Made by a program: the position numbers and the translations under genes. From Candidatus Iainarchaeum sp. (GTDB taxonomy: Archaea > Iainarchaeota > Iainarchaeia > Iainarchaeales > VGJJ01): a stretch of DNA of 32,000 nucleotides. Positions 846 through 17,346 of this stretch are shown one piece after another; within the stretch, counting starts at the first letter, position 1, and each line of letters begins with the position of its first letter. The notes below the pieces were generated by a model that saw nothing but the letters and a program-made list of their open reading frames with translations, was not told where the DNA came from and searched no databases. The stretch is taken from contig JAUYHT010000001.1 of assembly GCA_030688545.1 (NCBI GenBank), positions 53,195 through 85,194 on the forward strand, written 5' to 3'.

Positions 846-1226
846 ATGGCCAAACCCTTTTTCATGAAGCTCGTGGTGTATGCCCCCAAAACGCATGTTG
901 ATCCTATTCTCGAGGCATTGCATCAGACTGGTTGCGGGAAATCAGACGGCGGCAAATACGAAGGACGCGCCTTCCTCACATTCGGACATGGCACATGGAT
1001 CGCGCTCAAGGGGAGTAAGCCTTTCAAAGGGCGTCTCAACCGTCGCGAAATGGTTCAGGAAGTCCGGATCGAGACCACGTGTCCCAAAGAAAAATCGGCA
1101 GACATCCTCCGCATCATCCGATCAATTCATCCCTATGAAGAACCCGTGATTGAAATCTATTCCTTGGACGCCGTTTCCAATGCGGCCCCCCTCAAGGCAG
1201 GGGCCAAAGTTCTCCGGTACAAGTAG
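846..1226 (+). CDS. Nif3/YqfO-like PII-fold domain protein (stand-alone)
   Basis: In-frame ATG at 846 (MAKPFFMKLVVYAP...) lies 4 nt after the previous stop. The pattern MKLVVY.P..H......AL...G.G...Y....F...G.G.W....GS.PF.G....E..R+E..C......I...I...HPYEEP matches the insert/C-terminal domain of Nif3-family (GTP cyclohydrolase 1 type 2 homolog) proteins. The track start at 819 overlaps the upstream gene and is less likely. Confidence 0.65.
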   Translation: MAKPFFMKLVVYAPKTHVDPILEALHQTGCGKSDGGKYEGRAFLTFGHGTWIALKGSKPFKGRLNRREMVQEVRIETTCPKEKSADILRIIRSIHPYEEPVIEIYSLDAVSNAAPLKAGAKVLRYK

Positions 1227-1229
1227 CGG

Positions 1230-1320
1230 AAACTTTTTACAAAAAAGTTTCATCAAAACAAACTTTTTAGGAAAAAGTTTGATCAAAAAATCTTTTTACA
1301 AAAAAGTTTCATCAAAAAAC
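1230..1320. repeat. Three tandem ~31-bp units, each containing the A/T inverted repeat AAACTTTTT-N2-AAAAAGTTT followed by CATCAAAA
   Basis: Read directly: units at 1230-1259, 1260-1290 and 1291-1320. The same unit recurs at 25041-25072. Confidence 0.9.
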
Positions 1321-1406
1321 GGGTAATACTTCTTCTTTTAGGGTGGCTTGTATCTCCCATTTTAGGCGAGCGAGCACGTAGGCCGAATGAGATTCTTTGT
1401 ACTAAA

Positions 1407-2180
1407 GTGATGCCCCGCCTTTCAGCCGGGAAGGTCTTCGTTTATATTGGATATTACTCCTCTCAACCTATGCCGGCAAAAGGGTGGGGGTCTCGGTGGG
1501 CGAATAAAGCCAGGCTCCTTGGCCGCGGAATGCTTCCAAAAAGAGTGGGGAAAGAAATGCATCGCGCGATATTGCGCTGGAGCGGGAGGGATGTTTCCCG
1601 ACATGATAAGGCTCGAAAGATTGTTCAACGCCAGGATCCGGGAGCTATTTTATTGCGGGAAAATTTCAGAAAACATGCTTCTGAATCAGTAGAAGCAATG
1701 TCCCCTGCCCGCGAGCTGGTAGAAGAAAGGAAAAAATTGACTGACAAAATAGAAGGTATAACAAATGCCCTTTCATCCATGAGAGGAGGTACCGACGTTT
1801 ATAGAGAAAGGCTATCGGAACTTCAACGATCAGTGCAAAAAAAAAATAATATTAATCGGCAAATCAGAGAATTAACGCAACCCTTTTTCCATCTTACGTA
1901 TGAGTACTCGGCGAGAATGGAAGCGGCTCATCTGGCGCTCGATTGGATGGGGTTCGGGTTCCAAAAACCGGCGCATCAGGTCATCCGCGAATCTATAATC
2001 ACACAGGCGCCTCATTTGTTCGCCCAAGATCCCTTCCAATCCACACACAAAATCGACAAACGCGTGGTGGCGGCTTCCCGATTACAGAGTATCAAACGAC
2101 TGATTCCCATCCTAGGCCCTCTCGGGGCGCGCCGTTTCTACCGGCGTTTCCAGAAATTCTATTCCGTGCTGGCCCAATGA
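1407..2180 (+). CDS. Hypothetical highly basic protein, paralog family member P1
   Basis: 257-aa ORF (GTG 1407 / ATG 1410), Arg/Lys-rich, predicted helical middle. The C-terminal motif GPLGARRFYRRFQKFY is shared with the ORFs at 2459, 3446 and 14593. Confidence 0.6.
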   Translation: MMPRLSAGKVFVYIGYYSSQPMPAKGWGSRWANKARLLGRGMLPKRVGKEMHRAILRWSGRDVSRHDKARKIVQRQDPGAILLRENFRKHASESVEAMSPARELVEERKKLTDKIEGITNALSSMRGGTDVYRERLSELQRSVQKKNNINRQIRELTQPFFHLTYEYSARMEAAHLALDWMGFGFQKPAHQVIRESIITQAPHLFAQDPFQSTHKIDKRVVAASRLQSIKRLIPILGPLGARRFYRRFQKFYSVLAQ

Positions 2181-2242
2181 CGAAACGAAAAAAATAATTT
2201 AAAAAAAGGAATACATCGGCTTCCGCCGGTGATAAAAAGGAT

Positions 2243-2434
2243 TTATTTCTCTATTTGGTTTCTATTCCTTTGAGACACCACAAACCCACCCGCCAGCAAC
2301 ACGCTGTATAGAATGAATGGCATGACGGTTATCAACACTTCCAAATTCGGTAAAGGATTCGAGGCGGTGATTTCCATCCGAATGGGCGCCGCGCTCACGC
2401 TCGCGATGAACGCGAACAGGAACAGCCCCACCAA
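2243..2434 (-). CDS. Possible small two-TM membrane protein
   Basis: 63-aa ORF with two hydrophobic stretches (LFLFAFIASVSAA; VMPFILYSVLLAGGFVV). It fills the gap between P1 and P2. No homology recognised. Confidence 0.3.
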   Translation of the reverse strand: MVGLFLFAFIASVSAAPIRMEITASNPLPNLEVLITVMPFILYSVLLAGGFVVSQRNRNQIEK

Positions 2435-2458
2435 AGCTGGGTCAAATTAGCCTCTCAT

Positions 2459-3046
2459 GTGAAAAAGCCCGTGATTCCCATGGAAGAACGCCGACGAATG
2501 AAATTGGATGCCATTCAATCCACCAAACGCGTGATGCGGGATGATCGTCATGTAACGGCTACCAGATTGGCGGAATTACGTAGTGAGATCAATCAGATAC
2601 GTTGGGATTCTCCCAGTGAAGCAATACGCCTTTCGCGGTTAAACACCTTCATCTCGGATGTCCGAGATCGTCTCGCAATGATAACCGCGGAAAGACGTGG
2701 AAGGGTCCAGGCCCATTACACCGTCGCGGCAAGGCATGGAGCTGCGTTGCAGGCAATCTCCATGCTTCCCCAATCGGCTCGCGAAAAAATCAATGAAATA
2801 GGACTACTCGAACTATCTGAGATCATTTTCATCCCGGAAAAATACAATGGAGAATTGTTCACGTCACCAATTCCTACTCCGCGTTCCCACCGTGATTATG
2901 AGGGTAAATCTCCCCGCCAGATTCGTAGGATCGTTCTCGATAGGCTCCGACCCTATTTCAAACCGTTGGAGGCCCGATTATTCCTCTTCCATTTTTACCG
3001 CTATTTCCGCGCGTACACCACTCCTATTAGAAAACGCCGTCAGTAG
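2459..3046 (+). CDS. Hypothetical highly basic protein, paralog family member P2
   Basis: 195-aa ORF from GTG 2459; alternative starts are GTG 2471 and ATG 2480. C-terminal motif KPLEARLFLFHFYRYF. Confidence 0.6.
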   Translation: MKKPVIPMEERRRMKLDAIQSTKRVMRDDRHVTATRLAELRSEINQIRWDSPSEAIRLSRLNTFISDVRDRLAMITAERRGRVQAHYTVAARHGAALQAISMLPQSAREKINEIGLLELSEIIFIPEKYNGELFTSPIPTPRSHRDYEGKSPRQIRRIVLDRLRPYFKPLEARLFLFHFYRYFRAYTTPIRKRRQ

Positions 3047-3354
3047 TGCTCGAGCGCCTTGATCCCATAGGATATGGTCGACCCAGCTTTCACAACAGTT
3101 GCCACCTGGATGACTTCGGTGACTTCCTGCTCCGTGGCCCCATAGGCCTTGGCTTTCTGCGCGTGGGAATCGATGCAGTATTCGCATTGGATGGCGCATG
3201 ACGCCCCCAAGGCGATCAATTCCTTCGTCTTCTTATCCAGGGCCCCCGCGGCCATCGCGGCATTCTTCCATGCGGCATAGGCCTGGCTGGATTGGGCCAG
3301 TTGCTTGAATTTCTCGGAAGCTTTCATATAATTTTCATAGAATAATTCGCTCAT
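3040..3354 (-). CDS. Carboxymuconolactone decarboxylase (CMD)/AhpD-like family protein
   Basis: C-terminal block KTKELIALGASCAIQCEYCIDSHAQKAKAYGATEQEVTEVI carries the CxxC motif of the AhpD/CMD fold. I place the start at ATG 3354 (MSELFYENYMKA...). The 161-aa track ORF runs upstream to 3525, overlapping the 3446 ORF start. Confidence 0.8.
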   Translation of the reverse strand: MSELFYENYMKASEKFKQLAQSSQAYAAWKNAAMAAGALDKKTKELIALGASCAIQCEYCIDSHAQKAKAYGATEQEVTEVIQVATVVKAGSTISYGIKALEHY

Positions 3355-3445
3355 GTTTAGATTCACCTTCTGGCTCAACTCAATTCCTCTTTTTATGGGT
3401 GCCTTTGAGCAAGGGTATTTATGGGCCTGACAGGTTAGAAAGAAC

Positions 3446-4135
3446 ATGCCTCCCAAACGTATTCGGACTATGAAGAAGATTGCTTCCCTCCCTCGTTTAG
3501 TTAGGGGAAAAATAGGTGAATACATACTTCGAAGGGAATCACGAAAAATGGGGAAGTCCTTTCAGCGAAAAGATATGCGTTTTTACCTAACAGCAGCCGG
3601 GCTCGATAGTCTAGCCCAAAAAGAAGCTTTAACCCAGTATCATATTTTTAAAAATCGCTATTTTAAGAGGCGTTACATCAACAGGTTGCAGTCCGACCCC
3701 ATTTTTTCCTTTGATGCGTCGCATGATCCAGCTGGGTCTAATCGTTTAATTCGCGCGGCGGCAAACGCCCAAATGAGAATTAATAGGGCCCGAAATCGAG
3801 CCCGGCGATTACGGTTTAGAAAGGATGTCATTACGGTCGCGGTAGAGGAAGCCTTTCGTTCGATTGGCGCATCAGCCCAAATATCACAAGACCTGGCCTC
3901 ATATGGCAGGTTAATAGAATTGGTTCCTCGTTTTCCTTTGCCCTTCCATCCTCGGATTGGAACCACAATCGAAGAGGTCATTCTCCCGTCTAAAAAAATG
4001 AAATATGACCTGTATTCCCTTCTTCGGACCGAGATGAAAAGTCAATTCTCTCCATTACGCGCCAGGGCATTCGTAAACGCTTTTTATTTGATCTATATTT
4101 CATTGATGAGAGAAGTGGTAACTCGCGACTCTTAA
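3446..4135 (+). CDS. Hypothetical highly basic protein, paralog family member P3
   Basis: 229-aa ORF. A TATA-like TATTTAT box at 3415-3421 lies about 27 bp upstream of ATG 3446. C-terminal motif SPLRARAFVNAFYLIY. Confidence 0.65.
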   Translation: MPPKRIRTMKKIASLPRLVRGKIGEYILRRESRKMGKSFQRKDMRFYLTAAGLDSLAQKEALTQYHIFKNRYFKRRYINRLQSDPIFSFDASHDPAGSNRLIRAAANAQMRINRARNRARRLRFRKDVITVAVEEAFRSIGASAQISQDLASYGRLIELVPRFPLPFHPRIGTTIEEVILPSKKMKYDLYSLLRTEMKSQFSPLRARAFVNAFYLIYISLMREVVTRDS

Positions 4136-4141
4136 TTTATT

Positions 4142-4175
4142 AAAAAAAAATAGGGGGGGATTCTCCCCCCCTTTT
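4142..4175. terminator. GC hairpin flanked by an A-run and a T-run between convergent genes (bidirectional terminator-like)
   Basis: A9 (4142-4150), stem GGGGGGGA (4153-4160) / TCCCCCCC (4164-4171) with loop TTC, then TTTT (4172-4175). It lies between the 3446 ORF stop and the radA stop. Confidence 0.6.
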
Positions 4176-4180
4176 AATTT

Positions 4181-6670
4181 TCATTCCTCGAGATCTTCGA
4201 TCCCATTCTCGGTGACCGCGTACACGGCTTCCCCATCGGGCAATGAGGGGGAATCCACGAGCTTGGCGATGCGCTTGTTCTCTTTTCCCTTGCGCAGATA
4301 TAGCCGCGTCTTGCTCGCGTGCGCCACTACATTTCCCCCTACGGGAGCAGTGGGGTCGCCGAACATGATGTCCGGTCGTTCCAGCACCTGGTTGGTTACG
4401 AGTACCGCGACATTGCTCACCTCGGCGAGCCTTTGGAGCACGCGCATGTGCTTGTTCAGGCGTTGCTGCCGGTCCGCGAGCTGTCCGCGTCCGATGAATT
4501 CGCTCCTGAATTGCGCGGTGAGGGAGTCGACAATAACCATCTTGATGTTCTTCTCCTTCACCAGGTCCGCGGCCTTCTCCGCGAGGAGCATCTGGTGGTC
4601 GGCGTTGTAGGCGCGGGCCACGAATATTTTCTTGAGCGCCTCCTGGGCGTCCATTCCATTGGCCTCCGCGATCGCCGTCACCCTTTCGGGTCGGAATGAA
4701 TTCTCAGAATCGATGTAGAGGCAATTCCCATTCAACCCTCCTTCCTCGATGGGTTTCTGCACTGTCACCGCGGTCTGGAAGCACCATTGGGTGTTGTGCA
4801 TGAACAATGGTTTTTCCCCCCCGATGAAACTATGGATGCCGGGGACGGTCAAATCGTACACCCAATTGTCATAGGAGACCTTTTTCTTGGATTCGATCCG
4901 TTCCCATTTTATTTTTCCTTCAGCAAGCGTCCGGAGGATCTTCAAGTCCTGTAGCAATTGCGCATCGGCCACTCTCTTTTGGATCATCCCCCTCAAAACC
5001 ACTCCTATCTGTTGGGCCTTTTGGTCATTCATACCGCGGGAGATGTAATTCTGGAACGTGCTTTTTTTGATCCCCATTTCGGAATAGATTTCGTCTGTCC
5101 GGAAAGGGAGCAACGCCAATGCATCCATCACATTTCCGGGCGTCGGATGAGTCAACAATTCGAATGCGTTCCCCATCTCTTCCAACCGTTGCTTGAAGAA
5201 CCAGTTTATTTTCTGCACGGTTTCTTCGGCTGTCCCATCATTCCGTGACGTGGTTGAAAAGTACATCTGCCAGATGGTCTTGAACTCGCTCTGCAGGATG
5301 TTTTTCTTACTCCATTGGTTGAAACGTCGTCGCGAGCCGCTCAATTGGAAATAGGCCCTTTTCACGATCTGGTCGAGCGCGTGGGTGGGAATCCCATAAT
5401 GCGTCCCGATATTCTGGTCATTCAACTGCGTATTGGTTTTCAGATGGCTTCTTTCAAGCAATCGCTTGACTTTTTGCTTGCTTTTGGTGTCGGTGACATA
5501 CACCAAGTATTGGGGCTTTCCTTCCACTATCCTTACTCCCGTGGTGGCCTGGATCCCTAATCGTGCATACAAATACGTAATCTGATGGTTGAGGGTTTTG
5601 GAGCGGGTGGACGTGGTGATGGTTTTATGGGCTTCCCCGTCCCCGTCAATGTACCCCCTCAGGAAGGCGGCCACGGCCCCATCGTCTGATTGCAACACCT
5701 TTTCAGGCACGAATTTGGTGTAGGAATCCGTGCGAGCCAATCCCTGCATCCATTCCCGAGTTGGTTTTTGGAAAATGATGAGGTTTTTGTCATAATTGAC
5801 CGACGGGGTGTACCCGAATCGGGTTTGAATGAATCCTTTCAGCCAATTGAGTGTTCTTTCATCGAAGATGGTGATGCTCAGGGGGTTTCCGCACCCTTCT
5901 GCCACGAACAATCCAAGGAAATAGGCTTCATCTTCCGTCAGGGTTAGTTTTCCCACGTTTTGGATGATACCGGGGGCCCCGATGTAATCTCCTTCTTCCA
6001 ATAGCCCGGTCGATTTCCACTGGATCCCATTCTCATTTAATGTAAGTAATGGATGCTGTTGGGTCAATCGCACGGTGTTTCCCCGGTTGGTCGTCACCTC
6101 GACCAATTCAGATACTTTTTCTTTGAATAGGTATTGCGCTTGGGCCGTTTGGATGTTCCCATCCAAATCGATTCCCATCACCTGCACGGGATGGTTCAAG
6201 TCGGCCAAAAACCCGCCATCATGCGCCCGTTCATTGATGGCATATTTTTGATACACCTCTTCCATGGAATCCAGGTGGGGCACATCGGGATTCAGATAGA
6301 ATAAGGGAGTGGTCTTCTCCACGCATTTCCCAGAAGCGAATTTTCCATAAATCTCGGTGATGGACTGGGTTTCAATCCCGCCCCCGATCAGCTTATCCAG
6401 CTCGGCAGAGCCGGTGGTGATTCTTCCCACCAGTTTCCGTCTTTCCGCGAGGATGTCCGCGCTCTCATAGCCCATCTCGAGGGCGTCCCGTGCGGCTTTG
6501 ATGGCCTTATCCGCGGTCCCTTCCCCCAGACTAGCGGCTTCAATCAATTCCATGGGCGAGGCCACGGCCACGCTCTCTAACGTTTTATATCCGGCGGAAA
6601 ACAGCTTTTCCGCGGCGAGGGGCCCTATTCCGGGCAAATCTTTAATTTCTCGAATCTCTACTTTTGGCAT
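4181..6670 (-). CDS. radA: DNA repair and recombination protein RadA, interrupted by an intein
   Basis: N-terminal HhH region (IKDLPGIGPLAAEKLFSAGY). The Walker A motif is split as YGKFASGK / TQWCFQ. The C-terminal part has the RadA core (LYIDSENSFRPERV, VIVDSLTAQFRSEF, VAVLVTNQV). ATG at 6670 (MPKVEIREI) is preferred. An in-frame GTG at 6742 would add a 24-aa basic extension. Confidence 0.95.
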   Translation of the reverse strand: MPKVEIREIKDLPGIGPLAAEKLFSAGYKTLESVAVASPMELIEAASLGEGTADKAIKAARDALEMGYESADILAERRKLVGRITTGSAELDKLIGGGIETQSITEIYGKFASGKCVEKTTPLFYLNPDVPHLDSMEEVYQKYAINERAHDGGFLADLNHPVQVMGIDLDGNIQTAQAQYLFKEKVSELVEVTTNRGNTVRLTQQHPLLTLNENGIQWKSTGLLEEGDYIGAPGIIQNVGKLTLTEDEAYFLGLFVAEGCGNPLSITIFDERTLNWLKGFIQTRFGYTPSVNYDKNLIIFQKPTREWMQGLARTDSYTKFVPEKVLQSDDGAVAAFLRGYIDGDGEAHKTITTSTRSKTLNHQITYLYARLGIQATTGVRIVEGKPQYLVYVTDTKSKQKVKRLLERSHLKTNTQLNDQNIGTHYGIPTHALDQIVKRAYFQLSGSRRRFNQWSKKNILQSEFKTIWQMYFSTTSRNDGTAEETVQKINWFFKQRLEEMGNAFELLTHPTPGNVMDALALLPFRTDEIYSEMGIKKSTFQNYISRGMNDQKAQQIGVVLRGMIQKRVADAQLLQDLKILRTLAEGKIKWERIESKKKVSYDNWVYDLTVPGIHSFIGGEKPLFMHNTQWCFQTAVTVQKPIEEGGLNGNCLYIDSENSFRPERVTAIAEANGMDAQEALKKIFVARAYNADHQMLLAEKAADLVKEKNIKMVIVDSLTAQFRSEFIGRGQLADRQQRLNKHMRVLQRLAEVSNVAVLVTNQVLERPDIMFGDPTAPVGGNVVAHASKTRLYLRKGKENKRIAKLVDSPSLPDGEAVYAVTENGIEDLEE
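4793..6325 (-). mobile_element. 511-aa intein with LAGLIDADG homing-endonuclease domain, inserted in the RadA P-loop
   Basis: The first intein residue is Cys (codon 6325-6323) right after GKFASGK. The last residues are His-Asn (4798-4793), followed by the +1 Thr (4792-4790). LAGLIDADG-type blocks are AYFLGLFVAEGCG and AAFLRGYIDGDGEA. Removing it restores GKFASGKTQ and leaves a 318-aa RadA. Confidence 0.9.
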
Positions 6671-7040
6671 ACTTTTCCCATCCTGCCTCTTTTTTGGGTA
6701 CGATTTGAGAAGCCGGCGTTTGGGGTGCCGCTTCCCTTGCACCTAATGAGACATCCAACATATCGTTGACCCGCTTAAAAAGCTTATGAGACCAAAGTTC
6801 CGAGGTCGTCGAACGGCTTCCATTGAAATCTTTTGTAAAAAACCCAAATAGGGCATTCATCCCATTCGGGCTGGGTGACAATCTCTTGTGGTGGGCCTTG
6901 AGATGGGCCGCAACACCTAATATTTGGAAATAAGCTGCAGAGGCATTGGCTCACCAAGCAGTTCTACCCACCCTTATTTTTTAGCGCTTGGTATCCGTAT
7001 CCCGTCCGGATTTCCTGGAATTATTCGGTCGTCAGTTTGA

Positions 7041-7092
7041 ATGCCCCGAGCGGGACATGGGCCTTCTATTACAACTTGCTCTGCGATTGAAA
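7041..7092. repeat. Direct repeat copy 1 (ATGCCCCGAGCGGGA plus about 40 bp similar to copy 3)
   Basis: 7041-7055 is identical to 8241-8255 and 9381-9395. The downstream CTATT..ACTTGC.CT.CGA.TGAAA aligns with 9406-9434. Confidence 0.85.
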
Positions 7093-7198
7093 CCCTTGGA
7101 TGATACCTTAAAGTATGTACCCAATATTTATTCTATATCCTTCACTCAGGCCAAGGTGGCAGAACTCCTTAAATGCATAAAGGGAAAACAATCATAGT

Positions 7199-8131
7199 AT
7201 GCCAAATGAAATAATCATAACTTGTTGCAAGGATCCTGATCTGGACGGTTTCGCCAGTGCAATCGGATATGCTGAGTTGTTGAGCAAAACTGGCACACCA
7301 ACAATACCTTGGATTTCCGGGAATGTCCATCCAGAGGTTCATTTTGTCATGAAAAAATTCGATTTCCCATACCCCGTAGAAACCACCAATCCTGAAAATT
7401 TTGCTCAGTTTGTGCTGGTCGATTCCAGCGAATTGAATGGATTGGATAAACGCATCAAACCAGAAAACGTGATAGAGATCATCGACCACCGAAAAATCAA
7501 TGATTCACATCTCTTTCCAAATGCCAAAATCCAAATCGAATTGGTAGGCTCCGCTGCCACCCTCATTACTGAAAAGTTCAAAGAAAAACAAGTTACTCCT
7601 TCCGCGAAGGCTGCTGCACTGTTGTATTCCGCGATTGTATCCAATACATTAAATTTCAAGGCAAAAGTAACTACTCAGCGTGATATGGCAATGGCTGAAT
7701 GGCTCCTCCAGCAATTTCAACTTCCAACAAATTATGTTCATGAAATGTTCGCGGCCAAATCAGACTTGTCAGGAAACAGGCTCCAAAATGGCATCCGGGG
7801 AGACTTCGCATGGTTCGCGCTTGGAAACAAAAAAATTGGAATTGCTCAACTCGAAATCGTTGGGGGAAGTGAACTGGCAAGTAGACGCTCTGACGAAATA
7901 ATAGAGGAATTGAGCCAATTAAAGGTTGAGAAAGGACTCGATCTTATTTTCATGTCCATTATTGAACTGGAAGAGGGATTCAACCTATTCATAACCAAAG
8001 ATCAAGAAGCTCAAAGAATACTAAGTGAATTATTTGATATCACGTTTAACGATACCATCGCAAAAAGAAATGGTCTTATCATGCGAAAAGAAATTGTACC
8101 ATTGTTAAAAGAGAAACTCCAAGCACACTGA
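7199..8131 (+). CDS. DHH/DHHA2 family phosphoesterase, family II inorganic pyrophosphatase homolog with substituted catalytic residues
   Basis: 310 aa, collinear with family II PPase: CCKDPDLDGFASAIGYA vs GHQNPDSDAIGS; VLVDSSE vs ILTDHNE; IIDHRKI vs VVDHHRV; ELVGSAATLI; IVSNTLNFKA vs ISDTLLLKS; C-terminal MRKEIVPLL vs SRKKQVVPQL. A TATA-like box lies about 24 bp upstream. Confidence 0.8.
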   Translation: MPNEIIITCCKDPDLDGFASAIGYAELLSKTGTPTIPWISGNVHPEVHFVMKKFDFPYPVETTNPENFAQFVLVDSSELNGLDKRIKPENVIEIIDHRKINDSHLFPNAKIQIELVGSAATLITEKFKEKQVTPSAKAAALLYSAIVSNTLNFKAKVTTQRDMAMAEWLLQQFQLPTNYVHEMFAAKSDLSGNRLQNGIRGDFAWFALGNKKIGIAQLEIVGGSELASRRSDEIIEELSQLKVEKGLDLIFMSIIELEEGFNLFITKDQEAQRILSELFDITFNDTIAKRNGLIMRKEIVPLLKEKLQAH

Positions 8132-8240
8132 TGCGGAAATATGACTGTGAAAGAATTTGATGCAAAAATTTGCTGAAGAAGTGGCAGATGTCGATCAAGC
8201 GACAGAATTATTCCAGAAGGGGCTCTTGCTCCACCACACT

Positions 8241-8268
8241 ATGCCCCGAGCGGGATTTGAACCCGCGA
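8241..8268 (-). repeat. Direct repeat copy 2: tRNA 3'-end fragment (T-arm plus 3' acceptor strand), not an intact tRNA
   Basis: The minus-sense reading is TCGCGGGTTCAAATCCCGCTCGGGGCA, i.e. T stem-loop GCGGG-TTCAAAT-CCCGC plus acceptor strand TCGGGGC plus discriminator A. No matching 5' acceptor strand, D-arm or anticodon arm follows. Confidence 0.8.
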
Positions 8269-8296
8269 TTTAGGCACCACAAAACTTCCTTCTTTA

Positions 8297-8345
8297 TCTG
8301 CCTAAATTTAGGCAGATGGATTTAAATTACTTCATCTGCCTAAAA
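8297..8345 (+). promoter_or_regulatory. Perfect 20-bp palindrome plus extra half-site around the TATA box of the Fic gene (operator-like)
   Basis: TCTGCCTAAATTTAGGCAGA at 8297-8316, TATA-like TTTAAATT at 8321-8328, a further half-site TCTGCCTAAA at 8335-8344 and TTTAGGCA at 8269-8276. ATG is at 8350. Confidence 0.6.
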
Positions 8346-8349
8346 TGGT

Positions 8350-9327
8350 ATGGCGCTTCGAATCAAAACTATTGCCGGAAAGCCCTATTATTATCTTCAT
8401 CTGAGCTATTTTATTCAAAGTAAGTCCAAAAGTTTCAGCAAGTACGTCGGAACCGAAAAACCCACGCAAAACAATCTCACAAAATTAGAAGGTTCATTCC
8501 GGGATGAAATCATCGAAAAACTGGGAAAACAACTCTTTGCGAATGAAAACATTTCAAAGGACGATGTCATCAAGACGTTCCTTTTCCGTGACGCATTCAA
8601 TGAGAAATACAAAAAACTCTCACCGGTTGAACGAAAAAATTTCGAAGTCAACCGCACCATCCTTTTTACTTTAACCACACTTACAACTGAAGACGTGGAC
8701 GTGGATTTGAACGACGTGATGGCAGCCTACCAAAAAGAGGCAAAACTGGATGCGCGTGAAACAATCAGCAAAAACATGCTCGAAGGGGTAGCTAAAATCA
8801 AAGAGTCGTGGAAGCTAGATGAAAAATCAATTCTATCGCTCCACAAAACAATTATGGCCAGTTTTGAAACGAAAAATCCGGGAACCTTTCGCCAAAGACA
8901 AGTTTACATTCACCGTCAAGATGAAAAAAATCCATTTGGAATAGAGATCGCACACCGTCCGCCTTCTTTTCTGGAAATACCAGAGCGCGTTGAGGAAATG
9001 GTTAAGTGGTATAATTCAAGTGGTCTTAATCCTATCGAAAAAGCGGCAGGCATTCATTTTGAATTGTATGTTATTCATCCATTTTTGGATGGGAATAAGC
9101 GCGTATCCCGGCTACTATTCAATAAAGCACTAATCGAAAATAGTTTTCCGTTAGTAAACATCTCCGAAAAGAAAGAGGATTATTTTCGCGCACTTATTCA
9201 GTCGGTTGAGGCCAAAAATGTAAAACCATTCACTGAGTTCGCCCTCAATGAGTTTTACCGGCAAGTCAGACAGTTCCTAAAAGCTAAAAAAATACCCAAA
9301 ACAAATATAGAACAAAAAGGGGAATGA
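8350..9327 (+). CDS. Fic/DOC family protein (Fic1) with deviant active-site motif
   Basis: 325 aa. The Fic core is HPFLDGNKRVSR versus canonical HxFx(D/E)GNGRxxR, a Gly to Lys change. It is an N-terminal paralog of the ORF at 29567-30499 (both start M.....K....YYYL). Confidence 0.85.
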   Translation: MALRIKTIAGKPYYYLHLSYFIQSKSKSFSKYVGTEKPTQNNLTKLEGSFRDEIIEKLGKQLFANENISKDDVIKTFLFRDAFNEKYKKLSPVERKNFEVNRTILFTLTTLTTEDVDVDLNDVMAAYQKEAKLDARETISKNMLEGVAKIKESWKLDEKSILSLHKTIMASFETKNPGTFRQRQVYIHRQDEKNPFGIEIAHRPPSFLEIPERVEEMVKWYNSSGLNPIEKAAGIHFELYVIHPFLDGNKRVSRLLFNKALIENSFPLVNISEKKEDYFRALIQSVEAKNVKPFTEFALNEFYRQVRQFLKAKKIPKTNIEQKGE

Positions 9328-9341
9328 AAAAAGTAGGATAA

Positions 9342-9378
9342 TTATCACCACCTGACTAGAAAAAGTAGGTGGTGATAA
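9342..9378. terminator. 12-bp perfect stem hairpin downstream of Fic1
   Basis: TTATCACCACCT (9342-9353) / AGGTGGTGATAA (9367-9378) with a 13-nt loop, flanked by A-runs. It ends 2 bp before repeat copy 3. Confidence 0.5.
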
Positions 9379-9380
9379 AA

Positions 9381-9434
9381 ATGCCCCGAGCGGGATTTGA
9401 ACTCACTATTCCCACTTGCCCTACGACTGAAAAA
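9381..9434. repeat. Direct repeat copy 3 (ATGCCCCGAGCGGGATTTGAAC plus about 30 bp similar to copy 1)
   Basis: 9381-9402 is identical to 8241-8262. The T-arm is broken after GAAC. Confidence 0.85.
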
Positions 9435-9700
9435 CGTGGCACGCAATCTCGTACACTATGCTAAACAATTGCAACCATTTCCCTCGAAAGCTAAAAATGA
9501 GGAAGTGGTGAATGGAGGTGCCCCAAAACAACCAGAGATCGAAGTCCCAGAAGATCCAGTCGAACGGTTAGTTATCGAATGCCTTTTCCGAAGGCCATGC
9601 GCTTCCTAAACAAGGGTAATCTTTCGGCTTAAAACCAAATATTTTGACAGGGCCCGTCGGAAGGGTAGTTTTTTATATCCCAAATCATTCCACTCTTTTC

Positions 9701-10321
9701 ATGGGCATTGTGACGAATACCAGGAGGGCCATTCGAGACGCTGCTTTTCTTGGTCAACGGGCTAAAGGAGCCCAATTTAGAACCGTTCGTCCTCCGATGT
9801 GGCGTCGAAAAAGTATTCGCCTTCAGCTTGCTCATCACAGAAACGTTCAAAATTTCCTGACTCGCTCGACCGATAACCTCATCCTGGCGCGCGAGAAGGT
9901 CATCAATGGGGAAGTTGACCCCAGGCATATTAATGAGTTTAACAAAAGTGTCAAGGCTGGCTACATGTATAATAGCGTTGTGCGAAAGGTTTTGGGGGCT
10001 GGAGCAGGTGGTATGGTATTTGTCACAAAGATGGTTTCAGAGGGAGGTGGAATTCCTGCTTTAATTGTGGGAGGGGGGTTTTCTGGATTGTTTGCCGCCG
10101 GTTTTTTGTCAACGATACCCAGTGCGCGCCGAGCCCGTTTGTTCAAAGTGTTGAGGCGAGAAATTTATGTACAAAGGGATGGTGAGACATTTCATCGGAA
10201 TAAGAAAAGTCATAATGAGAGAGTGGTGGATGCGGTTATCCGCGAGTTGTCTGAATTGCAACAAGAGAATGAGCGCCAGATGAATATCGTCCAGAGCCAA
10301 TTAGAACACGCTAAGAAATAA
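9701..10321 (+). CDS. Hypothetical basic protein with Gly-rich hydrophobic segment; possible distant member of the P family
   Basis: A TATA-like TTTTATAT box at 9670-9678 lies about 27 bp upstream of ATG 9701; the track start is TTG 9644. Gly-rich segment: VLGAGAGGMVFV...GGGIPALIVGGGFSGLFAAGFL. The motif PSARRARLFKVLRREIY resembles the P-family C-terminal motif. The tail looks like a coiled coil. Confidence 0.5.
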   Translation: MGIVTNTRRAIRDAAFLGQRAKGAQFRTVRPPMWRRKSIRLQLAHHRNVQNFLTRSTDNLILAREKVINGEVDPRHINEFNKSVKAGYMYNSVVRKVLGAGAGGMVFVTKMVSEGGGIPALIVGGGFSGLFAAGFLSTIPSARRARLFKVLRREIYVQRDGETFHRNKKSHNERVVDAVIRELSELQQENERQMNIVQSQLEHAKK

Positions 10322-10372
10322 CGCCCTATTTCTTCATTCCTATTTAATCGTTTGCGCCCCTATTCATTATAT

Positions 10373-11401
10373 ATGGTCACCCCATTCCAATTTCCTTTCA
10401 CTGGCACCCTGCCCCATTTCCATTCTCCAGGTTTAGAGGTGGATTTGGCAAAGCGGGAATTCCGAACGTATGCCCTCGGTGTCCGCTCGCCCGACCCGGA
10501 GGCCAAGCAGCGGGCGCTCGAACTCCTCAGGAAGGAAGTGGAAACTCATTCTCTTTTCCGGGGAAAGGAATTAGTCCATCAACAACCCGATATCGAACTG
10601 GTTTTTGATCTGGCAAAGAAAATAATCGATCTCCACGTGTTTCCCCTTATCCTCACTGGAAAATACACCAAGCTCGTGCGTACCATTGCTCAAACGTTTC
10701 ATTATTGTCCCGCGTGCAAAGGCATTGGTTGTGCGTCCTGCGGAGGGAAAGGAAAAATCACCGAGGAGAGCGTGCAGGAGCTCCTCTCTCCCTTTCTAAA
10801 AGACGCCTTCGCCTGCGACGCGGTGTTGTTTCATGGCGCGGGGAGGGAAGATGTGGACGTGCGCATGCTGGGTTCAGGACGGCCATTTGCCATTACACTT
10901 GAAAATCCCCGAAAACGTGCCGCCGACATGGCGCGTATCCAAGAAAATATTAACATCTCCCTGACTGGGAAAGTGCAAGTCAGTCATTTGGAGATCGGCA
11001 TCCCTTTCGACGTGGCGCGCCTTACTCAACAGTACCATACTAAGCGGTACCGCGCCCTCGTAAAAAGTTCCATTCCCCTGGAGATATCCAAACTCCAAAC
11101 CCATTTAGGTCAAAAGATAGACGTCCTCCAAACCACCCCCATTCGAGTGGAGAAGCGCCGCGTCATGAAACAGCGTCCCCATTGGGTTATTCTCGAAAAA
11201 GTGGAACACGTTGACGATACCCACATTCTAATCCACTTGCATGCCTCCGCTGGCTGCTATATCAAGGAATTCATTTCAGGTGACGAAGGGAGAAGCGTGC
11301 CATCCTTTGCCGATTGGGTGGGCGTCCCCTGCGTGTGCGAGGAACTCGATGTCCTGGAGATTGTCGAGGGCCAGGAGAAGACTTTTTATGTGGTGGAATA
11401 A
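10373..11401 (+). CDS. pus10: tRNA pseudouridine synthase Pus10 (archaeal Psi54/55 synthase)
   Basis: It has a Zn-ribbon (CPACKGIGCASCGGKGK), a GREDVDVRMLGSGRPF catalytic-domain block and a C-terminal YIKEFISGDEGRSVPSF block typical of Pus10. Start is ATG 10373, or TTG 10352. Confidence 0.85.
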   Translation: MVTPFQFPFTGTLPHFHSPGLEVDLAKREFRTYALGVRSPDPEAKQRALELLRKEVETHSLFRGKELVHQQPDIELVFDLAKKIIDLHVFPLILTGKYTKLVRTIAQTFHYCPACKGIGCASCGGKGKITEESVQELLSPFLKDAFACDAVLFHGAGREDVDVRMLGSGRPFAITLENPRKRAADMARIQENINISLTGKVQVSHLEIGIPFDVARLTQQYHTKRYRALVKSSIPLEISKLQTHLGQKIDVLQTTPIRVEKRRVMKQRPHWVILEKVEHVDDTHILIHLHASAGCYIKEFISGDEGRSVPSFADWVGVPCVCEELDVLEIVEGQEKTFYVVE

Positions 11402-11791
11402 CTACTTCTTTTCAAACCGGTCCTTGTCTCTCCCATAGCACTTGTCCATAACGCGCTTCCACGCGCCATCCAAATCAATGTTTTGCGAATTGGCCAAACA
11501 GCAGAGAGTAAAAATAATGTCTCCCATTTCATCTTCCAGTTCCCTCGTCTCTTCGCTGGATTTCTTCTTCTTGGGCCCCCAACGATGATTCACTTCGCGC
11601 GCCAATTCTCCCGTTTCTTCTGTCAGGCGCGCCATAATCTCCAACGGCTGCCAATATGGGGGATTGAATCCTTGCGCCCACGCATCTACGTCCTTTTGTA
11701 TCTCTTTGAGGGGCATAGGCTGGCCTATGTTTCTCTGTTGATTTAAATGTTGCTCCATGTTTGAATGGAAATCCATTGTAGAATATTTCAT
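11402..11791 (-). CDS. MazG-like nucleotide pyrophosphohydrolase
   Basis: 129 aa with EETGELAREV and ELEDEMGDIIFTLCCLAN (EExxE...ExxD MazG-type metal-binding helices). It overlaps the upstream gene by 4 nt. Confidence 0.8.
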   Translation of the reverse strand: MKYSTMDFHSNMEQHLNQQRNIGQPMPLKEIQKDVDAWAQGFNPPYWQPLEIMARLTEETGELAREVNHRWGPKKKKSSEETRELEDEMGDIIFTLCCLANSQNIDLDGAWKRVMDKCYGRDKDRFEKK

Positions 11792-12765
11792 GCCTTATTT
11801 ATCTCTTCGTTTGTCTCGAACGGAATTACTTTCGCATCCTGGATAATGAGTTCTACTTCCCCGCCCATCCCTATTTTACTTCGTCCTCGGATTCGGAGGC
11901 GTTTTCCCAGCAGGTTCCGGTGCAACTCTCTTTTCCCTTCATCGCTCTGCAAGGCCGCCAACACTTCTTCTTTAGTCTTTCCATACGTCTGGAGCGCCTG
12001 CTCCTCGAAGGCCACCCCCCGCAGGGAGGCTGACCCATCATCCAACAACAAGGGTAGCAGGAGCCGCGCATCTATTTTCTCGGATTGGCAGTGCACGCAC
12101 GCGGTCATAATTTCAGGGAGTTTCCCTCCGCAACCCCCGCATTTCACATAATATCCTTTCCCCGGGAGCACGTCGATGATATGCGCCTCTCCGTGAACGG
12201 AACGGTTTTCCTGGATGTGGGCAAATGGGGTTATTTTGTCTGGGGCAGAAATATTATCCCCACCCTCATTCGTCACCGTAAACCCCCCATTATACCCCAT
12301 GTTCAATTGCAGAGTCTCCTGAAACAATCCCACTCGGCAATTCGTTAGTTTCAATTGGCTTCCCGGCCGCAGGCCTTTTTGCAAGGCCTCGTCGGCCTGG
12401 TCATTCCAGAACGTGATGAGCGCCTCCCCCGTTTGGTCTTTGAGGCGGACGTGGATGTATTTTCCCTCTTTTCCATTCCGGGTGAATGGTTTCATCCGAT
12501 CGACCATCGTGACATTTCCCTGTGTGTCCACATTGGCCATCCCGGCCTTCAATTCTCCTAGCTTGAGTAAAGTATGATCGGCCTGAAGCGAGGATATCTT
12601 CACTCGTAACTCATTAGCCACCAGGACGGTGGCGCCGTGTTCGGTTAGCAATCCATTGAATTGGGCGATTTTCTTTTCGATGCGGGCGCGGACATCTATT
12701 TCATCCATTCCTGATTGAGCGACGATCTCTCGGAGAGCGCTTTCCATATCTATGCTAGCAGTCAT
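11788..12765 (-). CDS. Replication protein A (RPA)-like ssDNA-binding protein, OB folds plus C4 zinc ribbon
   Basis: 325 aa. OB-fold-like segments flank CGGCGGKLPEIMTACVHCQ. There is an N-terminal helical domain. The architecture matches archaeal RPA/RFA large subunits. Confidence 0.7.
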   Translation of the reverse strand: MTASIDMESALREIVAQSGMDEIDVRARIEKKIAQFNGLLTEHGATVLVANELRVKISSLQADHTLLKLGELKAGMANVDTQGNVTMVDRMKPFTRNGKEGKYIHVRLKDQTGEALITFWNDQADEALQKGLRPGSQLKLTNCRVGLFQETLQLNMGYNGGFTVTNEGGDNISAPDKITPFAHIQENRSVHGEAHIIDVLPGKGYYVKCGGCGGKLPEIMTACVHCQSEKIDARLLLPLLLDDGSASLRGVAFEEQALQTYGKTKEEVLAALQSDEGKRELHRNLLGKRLRIRGRSKIGMGGEVELIIQDAKVIPFETNEEINKA

Positions 12766-12896
12766 ATCCCTTTTTCTTTACGTCTTCCTTCGTTTTAAGG
12801 GTGTCTCTGCAGGGAGCGTTCCCTAAAATGAGTCTATTTTTCGTTCGCTCCGAATGTTCATGCTTTATATTTGTAGTTGTCGTGTGTGAGTAGCCT

Positions 12897-13577
12897 ATGT
12901 GGGAAGAGTTAGGGGAAGGGATATACGCCTCGTTCGGTTCGGAGCGAGAGACCAATGCCTACGTGTTAGTGGGCAAAGACGTCGCTCTCATCGATTCAGG
13001 GTTGGACATCAATGCCCGACAGCTCAAGGAAGGCCTGTCGTCTATCGGCCTCTCCCCCAAAGAAGTGGGGATGATCCTCCACACGCACGGGCATGCCGAT
13101 AATTTCGGTCTGGACCATTTGTTTCCCCGCGCTCAAGTCTGGATGCATCCCGCCGATGCCACGTATGTCAATTCGCGCGACTCCTCTTTCGTCATGGCGG
13201 AGAGCTTGCAAGCGTATGGATTGAAATTCCCCCAAATACCGCATCATTTCATTGAGAAGCAGGTCATCGACCTGGGTAATTTTTCCATCCAGGTTCTTTT
13301 CACTCCTGGCCACACCAAAGGAAGTGTCTCCTTCATGGAAACAAACAAGAAATGGCTTTTTTGCGGGGACGCGTTGTTTTCCACCGGTTTAGGGAGGTGG
13401 GATTTAACATCAGGCAATAAGCCCCAAGTCATATCATCCGCTAGGAAAATATTGTTCTCTTCTCCCCGGATGGTTTTACCCGGCCACGGCCCCCCGCTTA
13501 AAGCCCGGGGCTCCGCCTCCATCGCCCGCCAGCTCGAACGACTCATGGTGGAGGAAGTGCCTGAGGCGTTCTACTAA
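12897..13577 (+). CDS. MBL-fold metallo-hydrolase (glyoxalase II-like)
   Basis: 226 aa. Motif LHTHGHADNFG is HxHxD followed by N instead of the usual H. Later blocks are TPGHTKGS and LPGHG. Confidence 0.8.
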   Translation: MWEELGEGIYASFGSERETNAYVLVGKDVALIDSGLDINARQLKEGLSSIGLSPKEVGMILHTHGHADNFGLDHLFPRAQVWMHPADATYVNSRDSSFVMAESLQAYGLKFPQIPHHFIEKQVIDLGNFSIQVLFTPGHTKGSVSFMETNKKWLFCGDALFSTGLGRWDLTSGNKPQVISSARKILFSSPRMVLPGHGPPLKARGSASIARQLERLMVEEVPEAFY

Positions 13578-13739
13578 AAAGTAATTTCCGGCTGGCCGTC
13601 GAGGCGTAAAGATGTCCTCCTGGGTTGCTTCATCTCGGTTTGAAAAACTCATTTTAATAGTATGCTGGTAGACTAGGTTAATTGGGGCCAGGGGGTAGGC
13701 CGTTTTATAAGCCCTTTTTGTTTAATATCGCTGGTTCGC

Positions 13740-14582
13740 ATGGCGCTTCACACCCAGAAAGACGGCCTCCAGGCGGACGGGATAAAATCCTTCCCGCAGT
13801 CCCCCCAATCGGGAAAAGTTTACCAATCCCTCCTCTCTCATGCTAAAGAGTCTCCCGGCCACGTTTTCCTCGTCATCGATCCTCCCGATCATCAGCCCGA
13901 ACAGGTGAAAGCCCTCGCCCAAGCCGCCGACCGAGCGGGCATCTCGGCCTTCGCCGTAGGGGGAAGCCTTGGGGCGCAAGGAAAACTATTGGATGAGTGC
14001 ATCACGGCCATCAAATCGGTGTCCCAGAAGCCTGTTATCCTCTTCCCAGGAAATATTGCCACCATCTCCCCACAAGCGGATGCCCTTTATTTCATGGTGC
14101 TCTTCAACTCCCTTGATCCCTATTACTTGTCCGGCGCCCAGGTGGCGGCCGCCTATCCGGTGTCCCGCATGCGTTTAGAGACCATTGGCACCGCCTATTT
14201 AGTCTTCGAACCCGGCCAAGCCGTGGGATGGGTTGGTTCCGCCAAACTTCTTCCCCGCAACATCCCCTATTTGGGGGCTGTGAATGCCCTCGCCGCCCAG
14301 ATGATGGGATTCCAGCTCATCATCCTCGAATCCGGGAGCGGGGCTCCTGCCTGCGTTCCCCCTGAGTGCATTGCCGCCGTGCGGAAGATGGTATACCTTC
14401 CCGTCGTCGTGGCGGGGGGCGTGCGCACCCCTGATGATGTGTATGCGTGCATCACTGCGGGCGCCGACATCGTGCACGTGGGCACGAGCATCGTGAAGGC
14501 CTCTGAAGGCAGCCTGGAGAAGGCCGAGCAGCTCATGAACGAATTGGTGATTGCGGCCAAGAAAGCGGGGAAGGAACGCTGA
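13740..14582 (+). CDS. Geranylgeranylglyceryl phosphate synthase (GGGPS/PcrB family)
   Basis: 280 aa with VIDPPD, FAVGGS, ILFPGN, LESGSGAP and VVAGGVRTP blocks of the PcrB/GGGPS TIM barrel. A TATA-like TTTTATAA box lies about 30 bp upstream of ATG 13740. Confidence 0.85.
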   Translation: MALHTQKDGLQADGIKSFPQSPQSGKVYQSLLSHAKESPGHVFLVIDPPDHQPEQVKALAQAADRAGISAFAVGGSLGAQGKLLDECITAIKSVSQKPVILFPGNIATISPQADALYFMVLFNSLDPYYLSGAQVAAAYPVSRMRLETIGTAYLVFEPGQAVGWVGSAKLLPRNIPYLGAVNALAAQMMGFQLIILESGSGAPACVPPECIAAVRKMVYLPVVVAGGVRTPDDVYACITAGADIVHVGTSIVKASEGSLEKAEQLMNELVIAAKKAGKER

Positions 14583-14592
14583 TTATTTTCGT

Positions 14593-14973
14593 TTACATTG
14601 CATCGAACCGTCGCATATCATACAGGGTCAAAATGGCTGCAGTCATCTTATTTTCTGCATACTTTCGATGATACTTTGCACGCGTTAAGTGATAATGGTA
14701 CAACAAAACCCGTGCCTCATCGCGAGGCACTTCCATCCGGCGGAGTGTCAATGGCAAGTCATACGCCCCCATGGGAAGTTTTCTGTCCAGGGCGTCTTGT
14801 TTGATGCGCGCCCATTTTTCCTCAATCGCGCCCGGCTTGGTGGCGATGATTCTTTCAATTTCCAATATGAGGCGCTCATATCTTTGGCGATGGGACGTCT
14901 TTTTCCCACTGGGTTTCCGTGGCCGCTTTCCCGGTCCCCCAGGCCTTGGTTGTTTTCCCCCTTTTTGAGTCAT
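14593..14973 (-). CDS. Hypothetical highly basic protein, dispersed paralog family member P4
   Basis: 126 aa. TATA-like TTTTATT (plus coordinates 14996-15002) lies about 26 bp upstream. The motif VPRDEARVLLYHYHLTRAKY aligns with KPLEARLFLFHFYRYFRAY of P2. Confidence 0.6.
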   Translation of the reverse strand: MTQKGGKQPRPGGPGKRPRKPSGKKTSHRQRYERLILEIERIIATKPGAIEEKWARIKQDALDRKLPMGAYDLPLTLRRMEVPRDEARVLLYHYHLTRAKYHRKYAENKMTAAILTLYDMRRFDAM

Positions 14974-15012
14974 GGAGGGGGTGGTGTTCTCCCTGAATAA
15001 AAGCGTTCCCGA

Positions 15013-15849
15013 TCAGAGGTTTTCATAATACTCTTTCAACAATAGCGCATCTTTCTCTTGCCCGGGGCATTCGGTGATGCATATTCCTCCCACCCCAAAG
15101 GCTTTCCAGCTTTCCAGCATGGCCTTCCAATTCAATGTGCTTTCAGGTGAATCGAAGGAGGTGTGGTATTTTTCTCCTTTTTCAGTGAATGTGATGCCAC
15201 AAGCCTGGATGTGCATGTTTTTCAAATAGCGGGAATCGAAATTTTCTATTTTTTCCAATATGGCATCACATGCCGCGCGGGTCGTCAGACTCCCTCCACT
15301 CGTGGCGTGGGCGTGGCCGAAGTCCATGCACCACCCCATTCGCTCTTCAGCCGCGATGGCCATAACCTCTTCCAGATTTCCCCATTGACTAACCTTCCCC
15401 GCGAACTCGGGGGCGATGGTGATGGCAATTCCTTCCGCATCCAGGCGGTCGTATATCCCATGGCACGCTTCCAGAATTTTGTCCTTGATCATTTGGGTAT
15501 CATCCCCATGTCTAAAAGCCGCATGCACCGCCACGCTTTCGGCCCCGCACAGCCCTCCCATTCGGCAGGCGGTGTACAACCGTTCCACGCTCGCGTCCAT
15601 AATCTCTTTCTTCCGGGCGTTCAGGTTGATATAGTAGGGCGCGTGCACACTCAATCGTATTCCCGCTTTCTTCCTCGCCGTGTCAACCTCGCGGGCTTTC
15701 GCATCCTCCCGAATGTAGACGGATTGCACGAATGCCAGTTCCATGGCCTCTAATCCCAATGGGGGGATGCTTTCAACCCCCCGCACGAGTCCCTTTCCGG
15801 CGGCCGCCAGGGGTATTCCCGAGGGGCCGAACCAGAGTTTCCGTGCCAT
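15013..15849 (-). CDS. nfo: Endonuclease IV / AP endonuclease family 2 (xylose isomerase-like TIM barrel)
   Basis: 278 aa with SVHAPYYINL, AVHAA, FGHAHA and HIQA metal-ligand blocks typical of Nfo-type TIM barrels. Confidence 0.75.
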   Translation of the reverse strand: MARKLWFGPSGIPLAAAGKGLVRGVESIPPLGLEAMELAFVQSVYIREDAKAREVDTARKKAGIRLSVHAPYYINLNARKKEIMDASVERLYTACRMGGLCGAESVAVHAAFRHGDDTQMIKDKILEACHGIYDRLDAEGIAITIAPEFAGKVSQWGNLEEVMAIAAEERMGWCMDFGHAHATSGGSLTTRAACDAILEKIENFDSRYLKNMHIQACGITFTEKGEKYHTSFDSPESTLNWKAMLESWKAFGVGGICITECPGQEKDALLLKEYYENL

Positions 15850-17341: not shown

Positions 17342-17346
17342 TTGTT

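Follow-up and report, generated by a model that had tools for sequence, protein, structure and literature searches.

Within a stretch of 32,000 nucleotides (the window) from contig JAUYHT010000001.1 of Candidatus Iainarchaeum sp. (GCA_030688545.1), an archaeon of the phylum Diapherotrites (DPANN), a short sequence occurs three times in direct orientation and delimits two AT-rich intervals, each occupied by one gene. This repeat is the 3′ end of a tRNA-Glu gene, read in antisense. We propose, with a probability of about 0.7, that the repeats are attachment-site scars and that site-specific recombination stacked small modules at the point where tRNA-Glu met its native 3′ flank. The result is an integration scar of an ordinary kind; what is unusual is that the modules hold single genes, that no integrase accompanies them and that the tRNA gene is missing from the locus. 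Three observations carry the proposal: the identity of the repeat, the architecture of the arrays in three related genomes and the existence of an empty site.

The 15-mer ATGCCCCGAGCGGGA is found on the + strand at positions 7041, 8241 and 9381, that is at distances of 1200 and then 1140 nucleotides, and no fourth site exists in the window when up to two mismatches are allowed. Three matches were reached in none of 100 dinucleotide-preserving shuffles. Copies 2 and 3 have 22 nucleotides in common (8241-8262 and 9381-9402). The minus strand of copy 2 reads GCGGG-TTCAAAT-CCCGC-TCGGGGC-A, corresponding to a T arm followed by the 3′ acceptor strand, and the copy is identical at 27 of 27 positions (8241-8267) to the antisense 3′ end of tRNA-Glu in two related arrays described below (L042, 11032-11058; L044, 5795-5821). 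The length of tRNA-Glu that has been kept is 14 nucleotides in copy 1, 21 in copy 3 and 26 in copy 2, and every copy carries one further common base past the discriminator. Apart from the core, the right arms of copies 1 and 3 are identical at 26 of 34 positions (7066-7099 and 9406-9439), a score equalled by none of 500 shuffles. The base composition departs from that of the host, with a G+C content of 0.39-0.43 (about 0.40 overall) within 7.0-9.4 kb as compared with 0.47-0.53 (about 0.51 overall) outside. The initial annotation, made from the letters of the window, had described the three exact matches and their spacings, the 22 base pairs common to copies 2 and 3, the tRNA-like reading of copy 2, the further similarity of copies 1 and 3 and the AT-richness of the interval, and all of these descriptions hold. 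So does its account of one gene per interval, a DHH/DHHA2 protein and then a Fic protein, which Pfam recognizes.

The parental gene, which the initial annotation left unnamed, could be designated from metagenome loci and from relatives. A scan of a metagenome collection with the 21-mer GTTCAAATCCCGCTCGGGGCA returned 37 loci. At 23 of these, ARAGORN calls a tRNA-Glu (CTC or TTC) that ends in that very sequence, and several further loci look like intron-bearing tRNA-Glu. The fragments of the window therefore correspond to the 3′ end of tRNA-Glu. Partial copies of this end were located at the same 37 loci downstream of the tRNA in seven cases and upstream in none. As regards the window itself, the sole tRNA reported by ARAGORN is tRNA-Gly (24858-24930), and none is reported in the repeat region. 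Rfam finds no tRNA at gathering score between 6.7 and 9.8 kb; at E<=10, it gives a poor partial match of 16.6 bits over copy 2, in which the acceptor stem is unpaired. Over both AT-rich islands (the second one occupying 28.7-32 kb), Rfam returns nothing except the tRNA-Gly (24859-24929). The view that no intact tRNA is present at the locus is thus borne out by both programs. Moreover, no 5′ half of tRNA-Glu was detected anywhere in the window with up to three mismatches.

Arrays of the same plan exist in the two genomes that encode the close homologues of the Fic protein of the window (Fic1), namely L042 (GCA_964372665.1; 81% identity) and L044 (76%), all other homologues being at most 60% identical. 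The more distant ones that were located (57-60% identity; L047, L048, L081 and L082) do not adjoin tRNA-Glu, and the association of Fic with tRNA-Glu is limited to the closest clade. In the window, the order is flank, copy 1, pyrophosphatase-like gene, copy 2, Fic gene, copy 3 and an open reading frame (ORF) with no homologue (ORFan), followed by Pus10. In L042, two ATP-grasp (Ddl-like) genes are enclosed by partial copies at 7302, next to the flank, and at 9891; then come the Fic gene, a hairpin and an intact tRNA-Glu(CTC) located at 11033-11107 on the minus strand (ARAGORN call, 59.6 bits with Rfam). In L044, a degenerate junction near 1165 precedes a gene of 186 codons and an AbiEii gene; a junction near 2656 precedes PIN, RHH and Fic genes; after a third junction at 4654 come a peptidase fragment and the gene of a Yip1 protein, and then the contig ends. 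Its last 30 nucleotides match without a difference those with which the L042 tRNA begins in this orientation, and the L044 array is a stack of four or more modules that ends in what looks like tRNA-Glu. Homologous DNA of the Fic module runs from the operator region to a 12-bp hairpin and ends exactly at the tRNA-derived core in the window, in L042 and in L044.

The outer border of the array gives the second half of the picture. The 64-nucleotide left flank (6977-7040) belongs to a match with 82% identity over 79 nucleotides to L042 7238-7315, a region that lies beside the outermost partial copy of that genome, and the genes located further left differ between the two. In the groundwater contig L035, an intact tRNA-Glu(CTC) stands directly against the homologous flank (L035 68-158 is 81% identical to L042 7228-7315), and the right-hand neighbourhood of the tRNA is common to L035 and L042. 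L035 is an empty site. It follows that the arrays of L042 and of the window occupy the place between tRNA-Glu and the native flank on its 3′ side, which is where insertion at that end of the gene would be expected to put them. When the empty site is compared with the distal junctions, identity stops after ATGCCCCGAGCGGG; the exchange therefore occurred within the last ~13 nucleotides of the tRNA plus one base. The initial annotation had suggested a comparison with relatives devoid of the segment. Such unoccupied sites do exist, L035 for the same site and, as described below, L038 with respect to L014.

The anatomy of the junctions points in the same direction. In a stack built by one recombinase, each internal junction is expected to show the right arm of one module, the core and the left arm of the next, and the junctions observed have this composition. 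Three kinds of arms are distinguished to the right of the core: one is common to L042 7302 and to L044 2656 and 4654, another to copies 1 and 3 of the window, and the third is the Fic arm, which has the longest tRNA identity of the three. Arm conservation extends to modules that have nothing else in common. To the left of the core, a hairpin of the form xCACCACC-13 nt-GGTGGTGxx, followed by an A-rich sequence, is found at five junctions in the three genomes (9342-9378 in the window, one in L042 and three in L044). Its predicted DNA fold has an energy of -12 kcal/mol (z -7.5), and one of its base pairs shows a compensatory change. It is present once in the window, at one of the three junctions, being missing at copies 1 and 2 as well as at L042 9891. 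A covariance model of the hairpin junction retrieved no copies past its five training sequences. Two other leads on the core and arms were set aside. A 17-mer joining hairpin and core has 26 matches in a viral collection, all of them chance matches in phage coding sequence, and a coding reading of the arms, as small peptides or integrase fragments, is discarded because frames across the core are not conserved and contain stops. In the same viral collection, the 22-mer has no match and Fic1 has no relative.

Small modules at tRNA-Glu are also encountered at other loci. In a second archaeal lineage, the flanks of L014 agree with those of L038 at 98.7-99.6% identity, and L014 contains an extra 2.46 kb (1133-3625; position ~9057 on the reverse strand of L038) that encodes an AlbA_2 protein, a MazE antitoxin and a PIN protein and whose edges are a 15-nucleotide repeat of the tRNA-Glu end. 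This difference shows the recent gain or loss of an integrase-less module. In L024, a module of 0.85 kb with a single cupin gene is located between two partial copies. The genome of the window is thus not alone in having small integrase-less modules at tRNA-Glu. It may be added that a Fic gene of another subfamily lies just past the site in both L014 and L038. The initial annotation had read the window as a tandem integrase-type insertion at a tRNA 3′ end, possibly decayed. The tandem insertion is supported by the tRNA-Glu identity, by the L042 array and by the L035 empty site; the term "decayed" is only partly apt, in view of the recent gain or loss at L014/L038.

The agent of the recombination was sought in the arrays themselves. 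The modules are flanked by attachment sites and are devoid of recombination or transfer genes. In agreement with the initial annotation, no integrase is encoded among the ORFs of the window, and neither a Phage_integrase nor another recombinase domain was found in the 32 kb of the window, in L042, in L044 or in the ORFs of the L014 insert. Integration of the SSV type would leave fragments of a split integrase at the borders, but no integrase-like ORF adjoins any copy (frames read by eye in the window, L042 and L044), and neither the window nor the 6-14 kb retrieved for L042 and L044 contains an integrase-bearing element in tandem at the same site. An integrase is encoded in another genome of the Diapherotrites, L047, where an element of 3.58 kb (9083-12680) at tRNA-Leu(CAG) encodes a tyrosine integrase (Phage_integrase) of 398 residues, AbiEii and a protein of 213 residues. 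It is bounded by a 14-17-nucleotide repeat of the extreme end of the tRNA, TCCCCCCTGCATAA(A)CC. Thus, compact tRNA-targeting integrase elements with equally short repeats exist in the phylum. By analogy, we infer that an enzyme resembling that of L047, acting in trans or since lost, would have made the tRNA-Glu arrays.

The following scenario is favoured. In the ancestral state, a minus-strand tRNA-Glu would have been followed by the native 3′ flank, now found at 6977-7040. Small modules, each with a stretch identical to the last 14-27 nucleotides of tRNA-Glu, would have been inserted successively. The crossover would have taken place inside the last ~13 nucleotides of the tRNA plus one base, each insertion duplicating the stretch. 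A tyrosine recombinase coming from elsewhere (another element, a virus or a plasmid) would insert the modules in trans. Alternatively, the modules would be leftovers after the loss of integrase-bearing neighbours. Finally, the closing right-hand tRNA-Glu would have been removed or separated by a later deletion or rearrangement.

This last step deserves comment. An intact target tRNA is present at one end of the array in the relatives L042 and L043 and is lacking in the window, from which we infer that the array was cut from its tRNA-Glu, lost or separated, by a later deletion or rearrangement. One clue is an element, hereafter X, which is located just 5′ of tRNA-Glu in L042 (11146-11230) and in L035 (~260-340). 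The copy of the window (31316-31436, + strand) is 22 kb away from the array. Its presence in the second AT-rich island suggests that a former linkage between tRNA-Glu and X was broken. Integrase-driven rearrangements at tRNA genes are documented in Thermococcales (PMC5495485). As to the assembly, a Logan contig (SRR13727534) is 100% identical to the window from 1261 to 19327. In window coordinates, Logan contigs stop at 1261, 19327 and ~32000, those of GCA_034375545.1 break at 8172 and ~9712, and no alternative arrangement was found among them.

As a separate observation, X contains two hairpins with compensatory changes and its copy in the window ends in a run of T; it has no match in Rfam and may be an undescribed small RNA gene. 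Directly on its left, the sequence CGGCACTTGAACTACCTATTCACCA (31285-31309) has a slight similarity, no more than marginal (p ~0.03), to the copy 3 junction and to the tRNA-Glu T-arm region. Either chance or the decay of the missing tRNA-Glu, of which this would be the residue, may account for it.

Several points weigh against stacking by site-specific recombination. No recombinase is encoded in the window or in any array fetched, and no circular form or excision product of the modules was seen. The repeats are short (15-27 nucleotides). The window has neither an intact tRNA-Glu nor a fourth repeat that would close module 3. Only three genomes of the clade were examined, and the Fic module that they have in common could reflect vertical inheritance instead of independent mobility. 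Lastly, the difference between L014 and L038 could have arisen by deletion between repeats and not by fresh insertion.

Among the other explanations, the one that fares best, though it is clearly unlikely, is an integron-like cassette platform, in which a resident recombinase would use the hairpin together with the tRNA-like core as attC and the 3′ end of tRNA-Glu as attI. Modules of one or two genes, deprived of an integrase of their own, would suit such a platform, as would the left arms common to unrelated modules and the 12-bp hairpin standing directly before the core at five junctions of three genomes. However, no recombinase gene adjoins any array, no R and L boxes of the attC type are recognized, and the Fic module has its own promoter and operator. 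About half of the junctions, copies 1 and 2 of the window among them, moreover lack the hairpin, the covariance model adds none, and three of the five hairpins belong to one homologous Fic module. The initial annotation had considered a cassette system paralleling a second array of the window, at 28.7-32 kb. This idea receives no support: local alignments of the junctions of the first island with the second island are at or near chance, and the hairpin arm exists at just some of the junctions. Likewise, the resemblance that had been perceived between the spacer 8132-8200 and the repeat of the second island is at the level of chance, since 70 to 470 of 500 shuffles score as well.

Still less probable is a hotspot of homologous recombination at tRNA-Glu, with contents swapped between strains through flanking homology, where duplication or gene conversion would have produced the short repeats incidentally. 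The flank and the tRNA are indeed conserved anchors in the window, L042 and L035, and in L014 each copy of the core is followed by a similar flank-like sequence of ~30 nucleotides. Nevertheless, homologous exchange does not leave the tRNA end duplicated at each border of the modules; the partial copies, moreover, are confined to the 3′ side (seven versus none) and the borders of the inserts coincide exactly with the repeat. Finally, it is hardly credible that the fragments are working RNA genes, either 3′ halves of a split or permuted tRNA-Glu or tRNA-like decoys, for although copy 2 folds as a clean T arm with acceptor strand and a T run follows each fragment on the tRNA strand, the fragments begin at about tRNA positions 48, 53 and 60 and not at 38, copies 1 and 3 are devoid of the 5′ strand of the T stem, the 5′ half is missing from the window, Rfam finds no tRNA there and an ordinary intact tRNA-Glu ends the array in relatives. 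Stacking of modules by site-specific recombination at tRNA-Glu is the explanation retained in what follows, and the features of the array are named accordingly in the table.

Features of the tRNA-Glu-derived array of the window, named after the proposed reading
Feature	Position	Strand	Remarks
Putative native 3′ flank of the ancestral tRNA-Glu	6977..7040		outer (distal) array border
Copy 1	7041..7055	-	last 14 nt of tRNA-Glu (TCCCGCTCGGGGCA) + 1 nt; putative distal attachment-site scar
Module 1 left arm (type B)	7066..7099		homologue of the sequence 9406-9439
Module 1 cargo, family II (Mn-dependent) inorganic pyrophosphatase-like DHH/DHHA2 protein	7199..8131	+	Pfam DHH, DHHA2
Copy 2	8241..8267	-	26 nt of tRNA-Glu (T arm + 3′ acceptor strand) + 1 nt; module 1/2 junction
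Probable Fic promoter/operator region	8268..8349	+	perfect 22-bp palindrome 8296-8317, half-sites 8268-8279 and 8333-8344
Module 2 cargo, Fic-family protein (Fic1)	8350..9327	+	Pfam Fic; PADLOC SoFic, PDC-S04
Hairpin, 12-bp, right end of the Fic module	9342..9378		element-side arm, possibly also terminator
Copy 3	9381..9402	-	last 21 nt of tRNA-Glu + 1 nt; module 2/3 junction; no tRNA body after
Module 3 left arm (type B)	9406..9439		
Probable module 3 cargo, 206-aa ORFan	9701..10321	+	G+C intermediate, 0.47

The cargo of the island is, as judged from its genes, of an accessory or foreign nature. The DHH/DHHA2 protein matches models of Mn-dependent inorganic pyrophosphatases and scores 188 bits with NCBIfam NF003877, under the cut-off of 283 bits of this family. 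Identity to the best homologues does not exceed 57%, and all those that bear a name come from Patescibacteria (bacteria of the candidate phyla radiation, CPR), which suggests a cross-domain transfer between episymbiotic bacteria and DPANN archaea. In Fic1, the motif HPFLDGNKR (9076-9111) has a lysine where AMPylating Fic proteins have a glycine, as in Doc kinases. A second Fic protein of the window (Fic2) has the canonical motif HPFQDGNGR (29756-29791), and the two proteins are just 25% identical. The palindrome layout upstream of the Fic gene is also found upstream of the Fic homologues that are away from tRNA-Glu (L081, L082) and of the Fic genes of L042 and L044. Palindromes are thus retained far from tRNA-Glu and are therefore part of the Fic gene, not a recombination site; those on the right of copy 2 are probably the operator of the gene. 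The ORFan has no match in Pfam, NCBIfam or PADLOC, and among 5.8 billion proteins its sole match is itself. The right end of module 3 is undefined, with no fourth repeat and no tRNA ahead of Pus10 (10373-11401). A synteny scan with Pus10 in a genome collection gave a single distant locus, of Thermoplasmata (33% identity). In the relatives, the cargo of the modules comprises toxin-antitoxin genes of the AbiEii, PIN/RHH and MazE/PIN types.

Other features of the window may be recorded. It encodes RadA, Pus10, an RPA-like OB-fold protein, SRP54, eIF6 and the ribosomal proteins L31e and S19e, a gene set that marks it as archaeal. An intein bearing a LAGLIDADG homing-endonuclease domain splits radA (4181-6742, - strand). 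The second AT-rich island contains a methyltransferase gene, the Fic2 gene and ORFs of 159 and 155 codons, between which a unit of ~55 nucleotides (GATGCAGCGACCGTGAGACG ... GAGTGCAGTGGCCTTTTT) recurs at 28709-28790, 29470-29545, 31378-31436 and 31988-32000, the window ending inside the array. This unit is the 3′ part of X and its repetition is significant (0 of 500 shuffles); two partial copies are located 5′ of X, an arrangement that simple insertion at a 3′ end does not explain. Elsewhere, five copies of a unit of ~30 nucleotides around the palindrome GAAACTTTTTNNAAAAAAGTTTC are distributed between two intergenic regions 24 kb apart (1228-1317 and 25005-25069), the second cluster adjoining tRNA-Gly. 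These units could be putative regulator binding sites or replication-origin boxes.

A broader proposal may be formulated, tentatively and in the knowledge that it is rather unlikely. The 3′ end of tRNA-Glu would be the seat of a cassette-capture system in Diapherotrites, and perhaps in other archaea, with a recombinase located elsewhere shuffling the modules. If this were true, promoter-bearing modules of one to three genes (defence, toxin or CPR-derived metabolic genes) would be captured by means of tRNA cores and arms, and the system would be a functional analogue of integrons built from a tRNA, one of its conserved arms being a hairpin. 

For DPANN archaea, whose genomes are tiny and which rely on hosts, the way in which genes are gained is poorly known. 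The locus described here and its relatives offer a concrete route, the accumulation of very small integrase-less modules at the end of tRNA-Glu. Should a recombinase acting in trans drive the arrays, they would represent a simple platform for gene capture in archaea. On a practical level, tRNA fragments can outlive their parent gene and are not to be annotated as tRNA genes or as split tRNAs.

How does this array compare with known systems? It departs from the split tRNA genes of the Nanoarchaeum and Caldivirga type, because its fragments begin at about positions 48-60 and not after the anticodon, and because the window holds no 5′ half. With integron cassettes, it has in common units of one gene, short recombination sites, some of which form hairpins, and a recombinase outside the units. 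However, no intI or attI is adjacent in the 32 kb, the attC architecture is lacking, the site is derived from a tRNA and at least the Fic unit has its own promoter and operator.

Elements integrated in archaeal tRNA genes offer a closer parallel. Integration leaving one partial and one complete copy of the tRNA is standard in archaea (PMC9897764, PMC8371274), and arrays of tRNA-integrated elements are known (PMC6563490). As in PYG1 of Pyrococcus yayanosii and pTN3 of Thermococcus, foreign DNA lies between direct repeats of the 3′ end of a tRNA (PMC9897764, PMC5495485, PMC8371274). Yet, elements of this type usually extend over 10-100 kb, have repeats of 40-50 bp and encode an integrase, which is split upon integration in the SSV type, whereas the present array has repeats of 15-27 nucleotides, single-gene modules and no integrase or fragment thereof. 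The L047 element shares with it the phylum, a short repeat of the tRNA 3′ end, a small size and toxin-antitoxin cargo (AbiEii, as in the L044 module). It differs in carrying a Phage_integrase and in targeting tRNA-Leu, and its AbiEii is 28% identical to that of L044.

By analogy, the closest described case is that of the tandem ssrA islands of Dehalococcoides. These islands are stacked downstream of one small RNA gene and are delimited by direct repeats of ~20 bp of the 3′ end of the transfer-messenger RNA (tmRNA); 15 of them do not possess an integration module and have been read as cis-mobilizable elements gathered by accretion (PMC3146451). Insertion in or near the T-loop region, extra conserved nucleotides beside the repeats, low G+C and variable cargo are common to both cases. 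In Dehalococcoides, however, the host is a bacterium, the target is the tmRNA gene, many islands carry a serine recombinase and an island measures several to tens of kb. The present arrays belong to an archaeon and are targeted to tRNA-Glu; their modules measure 1.1-2.5 kb with one to three genes, no recombinase is seen and the target gene of the window is gone. The tRNA-Glu arrays thus differ from the known cases by their host phylum, by their tiny modules and short cores, by the existence of several arrays without integrase and by the loss of the target.

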